Assembly (NCBI GenBank): GCA_016699245.1
Contig: CP064968.1
Location: forward strand, 835,042-899,041
From: Candidatus Kaiserbacteria bacterium
GTDB lineage: Bacteria > Patescibacteriota > Minisyncoccia > Phycocordibacterales > UBA918
Direction of reading: 5' to 3'
DNA length: 64,000 nucleotides
Every line of letters starts with the position of its first letter. Position 1 is the stretch's first letter. Positions 13,556 to 18,010 of the stretch are shown in pieces. The translations under genes and the position numbers were made by a program. Below the pieces are notes generated by a model. That model was not told the DNA's origin. It made no database searches and saw only the letters and a list, made by a program, of their open reading frames with translations.

Positions 13556-13990
13556 TATTGTTTTTTGTTCGCACACATACAAAAAACTGCCCGAAGGCAG
13601 TCTCTTGTATGTGTGCTCTCACCAGGGATCGAACTCTACGAGTTCAGTACCCGATGTGGATAATTTTGTTCGCCTTAGGGCTCCAAAATTATCTCGCATC
13701 GGCTTCGATCCGTCCTCCTGTTTGCTCACCGCAAACAGTTGCGGCTGGTGAGGGCCCAACTGAAAAAGCACCCGAAGGTGCTCTTTCATATGTGCTCTCA
13801 CCAGGGATCGAACATTACATGTTCAGTACACCTTGTCGCTCTTTTGTTTCCCTTCGGTCACAAAAGTGCAGGCAAGGTCTTCGATCCCTTAAAAACAATA
13901 CCCCGTATTGTTTTTTGTTCGCACATATACAAAAAACTGCCCGAAGGCAGTCTTTTATATATGTGCCCCCAGTAGGAATCGAACCATCTC
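13556..13990. repeat. Tandem array of three ~175-nt degenerate units. Each unit is a cruciform-like hairpin (gcacacatacaa-aaaactgcccgaaggcagtct-ttgtatgtgtgc) plus a fragment of the tRNA-Arg(GCG) 3' end
   Basis: 'tgtgctctcaccagggatcgaac' at 13612-13634 and 13791-13813 is identical to the 3' 23 nt of tRNA-Arg at 17937-17959. A third unit at 13961-13985 is degenerate. The hairpin module recurs at 13575-13620, 13765-13795 and 13925-13965. Confidence 0.7.
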
Positions 13991-14016
13991 GGTAGCCCTA
14001 GAGGGGTGACTTAGAA

Positions 14017-14050
14017 TATAGAAATGAAAAAGGACGGAAACCACGAGTGA
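14017..14050 (-). terminator. Rho-independent terminator for the minus-strand small ORF
   Basis: Minus strand reads ggacggaaatcactcgtggtttccgtcc followed by ttttt, immediately 3' of the ORF ending at 14081. Confidence 0.65.
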
Positions 14051-14080
14051 TTTCCGTCCCTGACCGTAGGCGGCGGCTTG

Positions 14081-14311
14081 TTAGGCGCGCGGCCGGCGCA
14101 GTCCCCGCATGTAGACATCGTTGTGGCGACGCTTAAGCGGAGTGATGCTCACCTTCCGCAGATCGATGGCAGCCGATTCGGGGGGCTTCTGGGGTGTCGA
14201 CGCAGTCGACGGGACAGTCTGTTGCATAAGAACCTCCATTGAGTTGCTAGACAAAGCAGACCATCTGCTCTCTAGTTTTTGTAGGATAGACTTATTTTCT
14301 CGCTCTGTCAA
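14081..14311 (-). CDS. Small Arg/Pro-rich protein; candidate RiPP precursor peptide (alternative 48-aa form from an internal ATG preceded by GGAGG)
   Basis: ORF ends ...PLKRRHNDVYMRGLRRPRA. Locally GC-rich compared with the surrounding low-GC DNA. Own downstream terminator. Divergent from the E1-like gene. Annotated start is TTG; an in-frame ATG (MQQTVPS...) carries an SD-like GGAGG. Confidence 0.4.
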   Translation of the reverse strand: MTERENKSILQKLESRWSALSSNSMEVLMQQTVPSTASTPQKPPESAAIDLRKVSITPLKRRHNDVYMRGLRRPRA

Positions 14312-14397
14312 TTGACATAATTGTAATGTGTGGTACTTTTTAATTCAGTTTTGTTTACTTTTTATGTTTTTTGAAAATTTAGATAGGAGTACCCATC

Positions 14398-15480
14398 ATG
14401 TTCCCACAAATCAAAGACAGTATCTCTGTCTTATATCGAAAGGTTCGAGATACCTACGAAGTGAATTTTCTCTTCAATGCAAGTAGCGTAGTCCTCCCAT
14501 TTCACCTTAACAAGGCAGCCTTTGACTGCTTGCAGTATCTCGATGGCTTGCATTCCATTGAAGAAATTGAAGCGAAGTCAAATCTTCCAGTTGCTGAAGT
14601 AAAAAGATTGGTATTGGCTTTGCAAAAAAGTCGTGTGCTAACTACAAGAAAGCAACTGGCTGTTATTAAGCAAGATAGGTTCGCAACGCAGCGTAACTTC
14701 TTTGCGGAATTTGAGACAAGAACTCAATCTCGCGAAGTTATGCAAGATCGGTTGCATCAGGCACGGGTTGCCATAATCGGCTTGGGTGGCATTGGCACTT
14801 GGGTTGCTCAAGGTCTCGCTCTTGCAGGTGTTCGCAACTTCGTCCTCGTTGACCCTGATGTCGTCGAATTATCAAACTTAAACAGGCAGTGCGTGTTTAA
14901 TGTTGGCGACATCGGATCTTTGAAGGTTCAGGTGGCGGAGCAGAAACTTCGTACTACTGACCCTGAAATTTCAGTTCGAGGGGTCGTACGACGAGTTGTG
15001 TCAGTACGGGACTGCCTGGAGGAAATGAGAGATAGTAGCATAATCATCTCATGTGCAGATGATCCGAGCACCGATGCAGTGAATCGGATTGTTACCGAAG
15101 TTGGCTTTGAGCTGAACGTGCCTCATATTCTCTGCGGAGGATATGATGGTCATCTAAGCTTCATCGGGCCGACGGTCATTCCGGGAAAATCAGCTTGCTG
15201 GTTCTGTTATGAGTACGCGCTTGATAGACAACTTCATCGGGCCGAGTATCAGCAACTTGCCGTTACTAATGCGCATAGCAAAGGAGGAAATATCGCTGCA
15301 ATCAGTGCGATAACAGCAAACTATCATGTGCTGGATGCACTGAAGGTCATTACCGGTTTCTTGAAGCCGACGATGACCAATAAGGCTGCGGAGTTGGATT
15401 TTCGTACCTACGATATCAACTTCCGTAAATTCAGAAAACGTCACACATGCCCATATTGCGGGCAGAAAAGAGGTGAGTAA
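14398..15480 (+). CDS. RRE (PqqD-like)-fused E1/ThiF/MoeB-like adenylyltransferase, MccB/PaaA-like
   Basis: N-terminal roughly 90 aa fits the PqqD-like winged-helix pattern (LNKAAFDCLQYLDGLHSIEEIEAKSNLPVAEVKRLVLALQKSRVL). E1 nucleotide-binding motif VAIIGLGGIGTWVAQGLALAGVRNFVLVDPDVVELSNLNRQ. C-terminal zinc motifs CWFC...CPYCG. SD 'taggagt' before the ATG. Confidence 0.75.
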   Translation: MFPQIKDSISVLYRKVRDTYEVNFLFNASSVVLPFHLNKAAFDCLQYLDGLHSIEEIEAKSNLPVAEVKRLVLALQKSRVLTTRKQLAVIKQDRFATQRNFFAEFETRTQSREVMQDRLHQARVAIIGLGGIGTWVAQGLALAGVRNFVLVDPDVVELSNLNRQCVFNVGDIGSLKVQVAEQKLRTTDPEISVRGVVRRVVSVRDCLEEMRDSSIIISCADDPSTDAVNRIVTEVGFELNVPHILCGGYDGHLSFIGPTVIPGKSACWFCYEYALDRQLHRAEYQQLAVTNAHSKGGNIAAISAITANYHVLDALKVITGFLKPTMTNKAAELDFRTYDINFRKFRKRHTCPYCGQKRGE

Positions 15481-16709: not shown

Positions 16710-16762
16710 CCCTACGTTCTATTTGAAAGACCCGAGGCCTTCTTTGGCCCTCGGGTTTTCTT

Positions 16763-17254
16763 TTATATTTTAGAAGCAACACACATCCAGCGCAGTTGAA
16801 TGTCTGATTTTGACTCGGGGTATATCGGTACTTCCTGTCTCGCTTCATAGTCTAGCCAAAACCTGAGGAATTTTATTTTTCCCATTTTGAGTATTTCACC
16901 CGTCGTTGGTTCAGCAAGATAAATATGGTCTTTATCTACTTTGTCTAAAACACTAAGGTGCCCAATGTATCCTTCTAGCATCCAAGAGAGGATAATAGCC
17001 GAATCTTTAGTGTTAAGTTCCATCAATTTTTCCCAGGAAGTGTTTTTAAAGACTTTTGTTTTGAGTCCGTAGTGCTGTAGCACATTCACCAGTTGTTTGT
17101 TGTATATACCTCCTTCCTTTTTGTAGTTAGTGACCTTAGTGATATCTGCGACTGTATGGGGTATATCAAAGTATTTCAGAGTCATTTCAATACTTGTAGG
17201 TCCGCAGGCACTAGCATCTCGTTGTTTTATAGGGGTTATCTTTGTACTTTTCAT
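16763..17254 (-). CDS. Standalone peptidase C39-like (papain-fold, bacteriocin leader-cleaving type) cysteine peptidase
   Basis: Q-x7-C motif QRDASACGPTSIEMTLKYFDI and His/Asp region IGHLSVLDKVDKDHIYLAEP match C39 catalytic residues. 163 aa with no ABC transporter domain. Confidence 0.65.
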   Translation of the reverse strand: MKSTKITPIKQRDASACGPTSIEMTLKYFDIPHTVADITKVTNYKKEGGIYNKQLVNVLQHYGLKTKVFKNTSWEKLMELNTKDSAIILSWMLEGYIGHLSVLDKVDKDHIYLAEPTTGEILKMGKIKFLRFWLDYEARQEVPIYPESKSDIQLRWMCVASKI

Positions 17255-17265
17255 ACAACCACTCG

Positions 17266-17793
17266 TTACTGCTTAACAATACTGAAATGATGGATGTTAA
17301 TCCTCTTTCCACTTTTTACACGCGCTGACTCAAAAAGACCATCTTGTTTAAAGCCGACTTTTTCTAAAGCCTTCATCATTGGAGTGTTTCCTTCTTCTAC
17401 CTCGGCACTAATAGTATAGATGTTCAGGTGTGCAAAAGAATAGTCAACCAAGGCGGTAATAACTTCAGTTGCTATTCCCTTACCCCAATAATTTTTATCG
17501 CCGATGACAATACCGAGATTTGCTACTCCGTGATACTCATTAAAATCGGTGAGTGCGACAGTTCCAATGGTTATCCCTGCGATTGCTTCAATTGACCAAT
17601 AGAAACCCTCTTCGTCATTTTCGCACTCAGTAATGTATTCATACTGTGCAGCGATGTCCTGCACTGCACTTCGTGGTTCTGGCATAAACGCTTGTACCTC
17701 AGGGTCAATATCCCATGTTTGCCACAGCTCAGCATCACTCGTCTTAAACGGTCGCAGTAAATAAGATTCAGATTTTATTGTGGGTACTTTCAT
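17266..17793 (-). CDS. GNAT-family N-acetyltransferase (RimJ/RimL-like)
   Basis: 175 aa with RimL-type acetyl-CoA binding core (VALTDFNEYHGVANLGIVIGDKNYWGKGIATEV). Confidence 0.75.
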   Translation of the reverse strand: MKVPTIKSESYLLRPFKTSDAELWQTWDIDPEVQAFMPEPRSAVQDIAAQYEYITECENDEEGFYWSIEAIAGITIGTVALTDFNEYHGVANLGIVIGDKNYWGKGIATEVITALVDYSFAHLNIYTISAEVEEGNTPMMKALEKVGFKQDGLFESARVKSGKRINIHHFSIVKQ

Positions 17794-17938
17794 AAGTATG
17801 AGTATAGCAAATTTGTCCTGCGTTTAAATCTCAATTTAAAAATCAGAAAATACACCAGGTTTGATTCCTTTCGGGGTCGAAATTCTTTGGTATGAAAATA
17901 TCCTTATTTTAGGCCTTTCGGTAGGCCTCGCTAGACTG

Positions 17939-18010
17939 TGCTCTCACCAGGGATCGAACCTGGATCTTAGGTACCGCAAACCTAAATTCTATCCATTAAA
18001 CTATGAGAGC
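17939..18010 (-). tRNA. tRNA-Arg (anticodon GCG by hand fold; ACG cannot be excluded without a folding program)
   Basis: Acceptor GCTCTCA/TGAGAGC, anticodon stem TAGGT/ACCTA, loop TTGCGGT, T-arm CCAGG-TTCGATC-CCTGG, discriminator A. A terminator-like hairpin aggcctttcggtaggcct lies just 3' of it. Confidence 0.65.

Follow-up and report, generated by a model that had tools for sequence, protein, structure and literature searches.

A probable RiPP cassette, apparently mobile among Kaiserbacteria, that pairs a ThiF-like adenylyltransferase with an arginase

What are genes for an E1-like adenylating enzyme, an arginase, a cysteine protease and an acetyltransferase doing side by side next to a tRNA gene in a Candidatus Kaiserbacteria genome, and how did they come to be there? 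The stretch analysed, hereafter the window, is 64,000 nucleotides long (GenBank assembly GCA_016699245.1, contig CP064968.1, positions 835,042 to 899,041 of the forward strand; coordinates without a locus number count from its first letter), and it was compared with loci of relatives, numbered L001-L032. [quoted passage not shown] It would appear, with high confidence on our part, that a RiPP pathway is indeed encoded here, that it acts on a 48-aa peptide whose gene was unannotated, and that it is carried on a mobile 3.8-kb cassette of five genes, for the arginine-rich short peptide, an adenylating enzyme and an arginase each fused to a RiPP recognition element (RRE), a protease and an acetyltransferase. 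Within the searchable literature, this is an undescribed variant of the RiPP pathways that use ThiF-like enzymes. The translated precursor, the two leader-docking maturases and their intact active sites are well supported; the chemistry proposed below is put more cautiously.

A precursor peptide and two leader-docking enzymes

The precursor was found by comparing intergenic DNA beside homologues of the E1-like gene. Its 48 residues, MQQTVPSTASTPQKPPESAAIDLRKVSITPLKRRHNDVYMRGLRRPRA, are encoded at 14227..14081 on the minus strand, divergently from the E1-like gene, with GGAGG 5 nt before the ATG at 14227. The mechanically derived open reading frame (ORF) is longer, running from a TTG at 14311 to 14081, and ATG 14227 is the likelier start, in agreement with L011 and with the called homologues, which begin MQQ. 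The gene has a promoter-like site of its own and a strong intrinsic terminator (14030..14061, minus strand; a 14-bp stem, then a T run) that lies within the block conserved among relatives. A putative divergent promoter region, conserved in L009, occupies 14283..14340; at 14306-14317 the palindrome TGTCAATTGACA supplies each strand with a TTGACA -35 box, the minus-strand promoter-like site reading TTGACA-17-TATCCT, while TTGACA and TGgTACTTT can be read on the plus strand. Two plus-strand ORFs, 14078-14242 and 14121-14315, were rejected as genes, being antisense to the conserved precursor.

The hallmark of the peptide is its C-terminus. MRG[LV]RR[PR]RA is kept beside the pair of E1-like and arginase genes in 19 of 22 distinct loci, the 22 being those whose E1-like relative is 32% identical or more, less three that were set aside as different systems having neither the arginase nor the precursor (L008, 32%, with two ThiF genes; L027, 32%, from Siminovitchia; L028, partial, 39%). 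The hosts are all Patescibacteria-type metagenome-assembled genomes, bar a few doubtful bin labels. Position and orientation of the precursor gene vary: it lies upstream and co-directional in L003, L005, L006, L012-L015, L018-L021 and L024, upstream and divergent in the window, L009, L010 and L011, and downstream of the arginase gene in L007, L025 and L026. The arginines at -8, -5 and -2 from the C-terminus are invariant, and position -1 is alanine, or once serine, even as the peptide shrinks to as few as 30 residues (MKISAKKLIIVPLGVVVDAVCMRGLRRRRA). Over the last nine codons the protein sequence is kept despite many different codons for arginine, leucine and glycine, and these synonymous changes are direct evidence that the precursor is translated under selection. 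A strand-like leader motif, (D)LxK[VL]x[IV]xx[LM], stands 12-14 residues upstream of the Arg-rich C-terminus and is, by analogy, the kind of segment that RREs bind. Just four homologues had been called as genes among 5.8 billion proteins, and there was no family match in Pfam or NCBIfam.

The E1-like gene (14398..15480, plus strand; 360 aa, QQR64750.1) and the arginase gene (15480..16709, plus strand; 409 aa, QQR64751.1) overlap stop to start (ATGA), and the two are adjacent, usually overlapping, in all 22 loci. Convergent with the arginase gene is that of a free-standing C39-type cysteine peptidase (16763..17254, minus strand; 163 aa, QQR64752.1), and beyond it lies that of a GNAT-type N-acetyltransferase (17266..17793, minus strand; 175 aa). 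The three proteins with accessions are identical to those Candidatus Kaiserbacteria entries. Hidden Markov model searches of Pfam matched all four neighbours to the families that had been read from the letters: ThiF (E 1e-41, aa 113-351), Arginase (PF00491, E 7e-61, aa 127-401), Peptidase_C39 (E 4e-12) and Acetyltransf_3 (E 3e-28). The Pfam PqqD model, which might have been expected to find the RREs, gave no direct match on the N-terminal domain of either the E1-like protein or the arginase; these domains are recognized by fold and by profile.

For the E1-like protein, said by the sequence-only reading to have the architecture of MccB and PaaA with an N-terminal RRE, the assignment is borne out over the full length. 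An AlphaFold2 model built with 63 homologues (predicted local distance difference test, pLDDT, 90.8) shows b1-b2-b3-a1-a2-a3 at residues 9-77. Searched with Foldseek against the Protein Data Bank (PDB), it aligns to MccB over 362 columns (template modelling score, TM, 0.78) and to PaaA over 354, as against only about 266 for ThiF and MoeB. MccB is also its best PDB match by sequence (E 3e-27, aligned from residue 98 on), and the winged-helix proteins matched by the profile of the N-terminal 92 residues include the PqqD domain 5sxy (E 1.6e-3). Residues invariant in the family include GxGxxG at 128-133 (G128, G130, G133), D152, Q164, K176 and the cysteines 267, 270, 351 and 354, with R163 kept in at least 90%. 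Judged by these residues, intact ATP and zinc sites and the MccB/PaaA architecture, that of the ThiF-like adenylyltransferases (TLATs), are well supported. In L001 (7936-8087), L010 and L011 (L011 5950-6059) a 76-nt tandem duplication with 88% identity covers the ribosome-binding site and first codons of this gene and creates a second in-frame start region.

The arginase carries a domain of the same kind. Its N-terminal 98 residues (model pLDDT 85) have a topology matching that of the E1-like RRE, and structure prediction thus gives the RRE topology in both proteins. The top 36 PDB matches to the arginase N-terminal model are all RRE-containing RiPP proteins, among them TigE (TM 0.74), the MccB N-terminus, lasso B1 proteins, PqqD, the PbtF RRE, ThcOx and TruD; CteB and SuiB come lower, interspersed with a few unrelated chains. 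By sequence profile the domain matches TigE residues 4-92 (E 1.3e-4) and TbiB1, and the two N-terminal domains of the cassette match one another (hhalign probability 95%). Because fold, profile and mutual matches agree, both enzymes are taken to be RRE-fused, as had been predicted. The arginase version is rare, with 97 hits among 1.84 billion cluster representatives, about 45 of them at the length of an arginase fusion (about 400 aa). The nearest PDB entries to the catalytic part are agmatinase and proclavaminate amidinohydrolase, the latter an enzyme that removes a guanidino group in a natural-product pathway, and the binuclear Mn ligands H230, D253, H255, D257, D334 and D336 are invariant in 69 arginase sequences.

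Could this instead be housekeeping, a ThiF/MoeB-type activator of a sulfur carrier that happens to adjoin an agmatinase of polyamine synthesis, among unrelated neighbours? The source annotations name homologues "molybdopterin-synthase adenylyltransferase" and "agmatinase", and for the agmatinase family the NCBIfam score is borderline. The E1-like protein, however, falls below every NCBIfam ThiF/MoeB cut-off (80-100 bits against 266-449), and the sole NCBIfam model that it passes is that of a leader-binding domain of thiazole/oxazole-modified microcins (TOMM). No beta-grasp GG protein, the mark of a ThiS or MoaD partner, was found in any locus examined; the enzyme groups with MccB and PaaA and has the conserved precursor beside it instead. 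RREs on both proteins, one of them of so rare a type, a co-conserved precursor and a block that is patchy and mobile among close relatives leave housekeeping scarcely credible.

Block ends, tRNA genes and structured repeats

The extent of the cassette is defined by comparison with related genomes (blastn). The conserved block, 14016..17812, takes in the precursor terminator, the precursor, the E1-like, arginase and C39 genes, and the GNAT gene with its -10 box; it is 88% identical to L009 9618-13417, 80% identical to L032 8543-12335 and 76-77% identical to blocks in L010 and L011. Its boundaries are sharp (14016/14023 to 17811/17812 in the window), agree within 7 nt across relatives and are flanked by unrelated DNA. 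In the window the block lies just downstream of tRNA-Arg(GCG) (17938..18010, minus strand; called by ARAGORN and by Rfam at 62 bits), whose 3' end points towards it; in L009 and L032 the neighbour is tRNA-Ser(GGA), the intervening genes differing, and in L010 and L011 it is the tmRNA gene, so that the block keeps the same ends in five contexts. Because the same ends occur beside different tRNA and tmRNA genes, the cassette is taken to be mobile and tied to tRNA 3' ends, and by this sequence comparison it appears to have travelled from one tRNA or tmRNA locus to another in related Kaiserbacteria. In all, 7 of the 22 loci have a tRNA or tmRNA 3' end lying within about 700 nt and turned towards the cassette, and among the remoter ones tRNA-Ile (L012, L023) or tRNA-Glu (L016) has its 3' end within that distance.

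The sequence-only reading had described a tRNA-targeted island with ends at the tRNA-Arg repeat. The tRNA-associated, mobile block stands, and it is not a locus found syntenically in every close relative; the ends that comparison reveals are 14016 and 17812, away from the repeats. No empty tRNA-Arg site was found, a metagenome scan with the 402-aa neighbour having given only relatives of about 61% identity without synteny. This protein, encoded next to tRNA-Arg (18654-19862, minus strand), matches the Pfam catalytic domain of carboxysome-shell carbonic anhydrase at 25 bits, weakly though above the cut-off of 21.5, and such a match is unexpected for a genome of the candidate phyla radiation (CPR). 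In L003, a tRNA-Asn gene followed at once by a recombinase zinc-ribbon gene and a zeta-toxin gene (1541-3371) lies about 6 kb upstream of the cassette, and the region may be a larger integrative element that includes it. The GC content of the window's cassette is unremarkable (0.46-0.48) except at the C39/GNAT end (0.40); elsewhere in the window, against a background of about 0.44-0.47, GC dips to 0.355-0.37 at 10001-11000 and 22001-24000.

The repeats themselves are real. The 23-mer TGTGCTCTCACCAGGGATCGAAC, the 3' end of tRNA-Arg, occurs exactly at 13612, 13791 and 17937, as had been reported, where 100 shuffles lead one to expect none, and a degenerate copy (78%) lies at 13962. Each turns out to lie at the 3' end of a structured unit of 100-150 nt, built in the order antisense tRNA acceptor/T copy, branch hairpin, long hairpin, conserved GUACUGAAC, short hairpin and sense copy. 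All the units at the cassette are on the minus strand. U1 (13612..13761; fold -66.4 kcal/mol, z -6.6; covariance model 102 bits) comprises tRNA-Arg's acceptor and T region in antisense, three hairpins and, at 13612-13634, the tRNA 3' end in sense. U2 (13791..13887; z -5.0; 107.5 bits) has its sense copy at 13791-13813. A partial unit, U3 (13892..13984), duplicates 13542-13634 at 87% (families D1 and D2 of the repeats, inverted repeat I4); its tRNA-end copy, the 78% one, occupies 13962-13984, and at 13921-13966 there is a terminator hairpin. A long terminator-type hairpin at 13571..13616, minus strand (inverted repeat I3, 21 nt, 90% complementary), overlaps the last bases of the tRNA-end copy in U1 and may be the original trailer of tRNA-Arg.

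Both the tRNA match and the structure of these units are conserved. They fold far better than shuffled sequences (z -5 to -6.6), and among four units from two genomes 14 of 31 pairs show compensatory changes, giving a conserved three-way junction. Units in L009 carry the end of tRNA-Ser and those in L011 the end of tmRNA, both sets lying between the cassette and the tRNA or tmRNA gene, and L032 has an analogous unit after tRNA-Ser. Short-motif searches had suggested that other tRNA genes of the window lack such units, a conclusion overturned by a covariance model built from the units, which finds diverged copies at 4897-5104 (minus strand), 5399-5479, 30543-30634 and 41796-41935 (all plus strand), beside tRNA-Lys, tRNA-Arg(TCT) and tRNA-His. 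Each repeats the T-loop-to-3'-end of the tRNA beside it in both orientations, antisense and sense, with no cargo genes between unit and tRNA. Since the same family occurs at other tRNA genes without cargo, the 23-nt repeats are not specific scars of the cassette.

The units may be attachment sites of an element that targets the T-loop, recombination sites in folded DNA, or RNAs. Pseudo-tRNAs were rejected: there are neither ARAGORN nor Rfam calls, and the T-stem is not formed. At 13.3-18.3 kb, Rfam gave only the tRNA and a sub-threshold STnc370 match on a terminator hairpin, and no family for the units, the diverged members elsewhere in the window likewise matching none; viral contigs held no exact match to the unit motif. 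Just upstream of the intact tRNA-Arg(TCT) (30655-30727) lies the 5' fragment of a second one (30472-30523, plus strand). Its acceptor and D arm differ, but the stretch running from the anticodon arm as far as the 5' T-stem is identical; the fragment stops at the T-loop, where it is joined to a unit, and the join resembles what site-specific recombination within the T-loop would leave. At 41748-41805 (plus strand) the last 10 nt of tRNA-His, its terminator and the antisense copy that follows make an inverted repeat of 27 bp, perfectly paired around a 4-nt loop; a 19-bp hairpin after tRNA-Ser in L032 (14310-14360) is similar.

How much of this concerns the cassette? The units could be a genome-wide family of structured repeats that accompany many tRNA genes, their arrays being recombination hot spots in which the cassette lies or by which it was captured; the 23-nt copies would then not be scars of its attachment. 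The cargo-free copies, each matched to its own tRNA, fit this account, as do the unit after tRNA-Ser in L032, the compensatory changes and strong folding, block ends that lie off the repeats, and units that in L009 and L011 stand between cassette and tRNA rather than flanking the cassette. Against it, the cassette lies by such arrays at three different tRNA-type genes, which fits units that act as recombination sites moving it, and the broken tRNA-Arg(TCT) points the same way. The account is plausible, though we lean slightly away from it, and the two views are not mutually exclusive. The cassette sits in arrays of structured units and probably moves through them.

Accessory genes and the chemistry proposed

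Which genes belong to the pathway can be judged from the 22 loci. The C39 gene occurs in 15 of them (at a different position in L018, fragmented in L019), the GNAT gene beside the pair in about 10, in four arrangements, and loci without C39 tend to carry GNAT. From this pattern of co-occurrence the core is precursor, RRE-fused TLAT and RRE-fused arginase, with C39 and GNAT as frequent accessories. The conserved precursor in so many loci, next to two RRE-fused enzymes, upholds the proposal of a RiPP-type locus. In L014 (7040-8325) the arginase gene is broken into two ORFs, and the C39 fragments in L019 lie at 8396-8650; either case may reflect decay of the cassette copy or a fault of assembly.

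The C39 protein agrees with the free-standing peptidase that had been proposed. It aligns with the peptidase domain of ComA, and Q11, C17 and H99 are invariant in 14 homologues, 13 of which have an acidic residue at H+16 (E115 here). The sole conserved glycine of the precursor is at -7, within R-G-[LV], with arginine at P2. Cleavage after this glycine was considered and judged insecure, the residue being threonine in L012. Among the distant loci, L007 has a Peptidase_M16 gene (6527-7894) directly upstream of the E1-like gene, and ABC_membrane/ABC_tran exporter genes lie nearby in L005 (3463-5328) and L006 (10718-12499); such genes could be another means of leader removal and export at loci that lack C39.

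The parallel that the sequence-only reading drew between the GNAT and the self-immunity domain of MccE from microcin C clusters is not supported. The GNAT's nearest solved relatives are the SpeG-type polyamine/diamine N-acetyltransferases and PA3944, and no PDB match to MccE was found at E<=1e-3. The second-best NCBIfam match, a GNAT domain fused to isoleucine-tRNA ligase (E 1e-12), is a weak hint the other way. Given the SpeG-type relatives and the precedent of the selidamides, acetylation of ornithine or of an N-terminal amine is a better guess than immunity of the MccE type.

The same evidence bears on whether the whole locus makes a Trojan horse of the microcin C type, a peptide with a C-terminal nucleotide which, once taken up and processed, would block an aminoacyl-tRNA synthetase, with the GNAT as MccE-like immunity. 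In its favour, MccB is the best match of the E1-like enzyme by both sequence and fold; the GNAT is moreover of the Acetyltransf_3 family with that isoleucine-tRNA ligase match, and L006 and L007 have aminoacyl-tRNA synthetase genes close to the pair, which count as one event because the two loci are mutually syntenic. But all 19 precursors end in alanine (one in serine) and never in asparagine, whose side chain MccB needs to form its N-P bond (PMC11256085). Such a product would leave both the arginase and the invariant arginines unexplained, equivalents of MccC, MccD and MccF were not found, and the GNAT, besides failing to match MccE, is missing from about half of the loci. We consider a microcin C-type product improbable.

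Ubiquitin-like tagging or defence also comes to mind, given an E1 fold, a cysteine protease and a small protein whose C-terminus is conserved. The E1-like enzyme would ready that C-terminus for attachment to targets, and the C39 protein, of papain fold, would process or deconjugate the tag. The E1 core does match the PADLOC "E1-E2" models of CBASS (cyclic oligonucleotide-based antiphage signalling system), but only that shared core matches: no E2 or JAB protein was found, and the other four proteins have no PADLOC match. The tag, which can shrink to 30 aa and varies at its N-terminus, is no beta-grasp protein, its last residue is alanine and not glycine, RREs are typical of RiPP maturases, and the arginase again goes unexplained. 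This makes tagging more doubtful still, indeed very improbable.

The RiPP pathway, then, is what the genes fit best, and for its chemistry we offer the following scheme, the most economical one, in which the ornithine-to-C-terminus lactam is tentative. The arginase would hydrolyse one or more of the peptidyl arginines at -8, -5 and -2 to ornithine, releasing urea and unmasking a primary amine. The TLAT would adenylate the carboxylate of the C-terminal alanine, and the delta-amine of ornithine would attack the acyl-AMP, closing a macrolactam between side chain and C-terminus and so giving a cationic lariat or cyclic peptide. The free-standing C39 peptidase would remove the leader, and the GNAT could acetylate a remaining ornithine or the N-terminal amine, as tailoring or for self-protection. 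Taken as one proposal, the RiPP cassette together with this lactam chemistry earns moderate confidence.

Several points weigh against this proposal. The NCBIfam agmatinase score of the arginase (174.0) is so near the cut-off (174.3) that a small-molecule substrate is possible by sequence alone; the glycine at -7 is no canonical double-glycine C39 site; no exporter is encoded within the cassette; and C39 is missing from about 7 loci and GNAT from about 12. No integrase gene was found at 10-22 kb of the window, and the diverged tRNA-matched units elsewhere in the window are cargo-free. The site of arginine hydrolysis, the order of the steps and the ring are all things that we infer.

Chemistry and mobility can be joined in a still bolder reading, which we think rather unlikely: the RRE-guided arginase and the MccB-like enzyme would make a cationic lariat like polymyxin or bacitracin, and the cassette would be ferried by an undescribed miniature element that targets T-loops, namely the 100-150-nt three-way-junction units with their sense and antisense copies of the adjacent tRNA or tmRNA. 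If that were so, ultra-small episymbiotic CPR bacteria might use the lariat against hosts or competitors.

Relation to known systems

On the side of mobility, the closest parallel is with tRNA- and tmRNA-targeted islands and their integrase-less derivatives (cis-mobilizable elements, tandem accretion). In these, cargo lies downstream of a tRNA or tmRNA 3' end, direct repeats run from T-loop to 3' end, tandem arrays form, and the same cargo can be met at different tRNA-type genes, all of which holds for the cassette too. The units described here add the antisense tRNA copy and the three-way junction and occur cargo-free at several tRNA genes, no integrase is seen near the cassette, and the block ends lie off the repeats. 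Structured repeats matched to tRNAs may show how accessory genes move in reduced genomes.

On the side of chemistry, the cassette resembles MccB and PaaA in having an N-terminal RRE, an E1-like domain with a zinc tetracysteine and a short ribosomal peptide encoded adjacent to it. It differs in that its precursor is Arg-rich and ends in alanine, in place of the C-terminal asparagine of MccA or the EEN of PaaP (PMC11256085); the EEN motif of pantocin A is in none of the precursors. The enzyme is only about 20% identical, is partnered with an arginase, and comes from Patescibacteria.

The hydrolase invites comparison with the arginases already known from RiPP clusters, which convert arginine to ornithine (PMC12703449). 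The OspR family (PF12640) and KgrD of the enteropeptins (PF00491) are likewise ureohydrolases of RiPP clusters with an Arg-rich core, and KgrD establishes that a classical PF00491 arginase is able to act on a peptide (PMC12703449). OspR-type enzymes have the motifs DXHXD and EEH(N/H)EAF as well as LDIDLDYFSC (PMC12703449); Pfam assigns the cassette protein to PF00491 only and not to PF12640, so it falls outside that type. Unlike either, it is a PF00491 enzyme with an N-terminal RRE, and its partner is a TLAT in place of a radical SAM enzyme or LanM. In the selidamides, a GNAT acylates ornithine made by an arginase and depends on that prior conversion (PMC8784127), so these too have arginase and GNAT in one RiPP locus, whereas the GNAT of the cassette is optional and nearest to SpeG, and there is neither an NHLP or Nif11 leader nor a LanM. 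RRE-arginase fusions go unmentioned in the RRE-Finder paper and the 2025 RRE survey, ThiF in the peptide-arginase paper, and arginase or ornithine in the two 2025 reviews of ThiF-like RiPP enzymes. As far as the literature searched goes, this would be the first RRE-fused classical arginase.

ThiF-like RiPP enzymes, according to PMC11256085 and the abstract of PMC12150305, adenylate the C-terminal carboxylate, which is then captured by an asparagine amide (in MccB), a thiol, an indole nitrogen, a backbone nitrogen or an external amine, and the TLAT products accordingly include thiolactone, indolylamide and imide rings or an amidation with amines. None of the TLAT clades in PMC11256085 has a precursor of the cassette's type or an arginase, and the cassette would add to the TLAT RiPPs a family defined by its RG[LV]RR[PR]RA core. 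The system is compact, five small genes including that of a 48-aa substrate, and the enzyme pair could serve the gene-encoded making of ornithine-containing cyclic peptides. The nearest in principle are three macrocyclases, EnfB (imide; also amidation with amines), IndF (indolylamide) and a thiolactone-forming enzyme of streptococci, which adenylate the C-terminal carboxylate and then capture it with a nucleophile of the same molecule (PMC11256085; abstract of PMC12150305). The cassette would share that logic and differ in its nucleophile, an ornithine amine made first by a second enzyme, which within the literature searched would be the first pairing of a step that unmasks an amine with one that activates the C-terminus.

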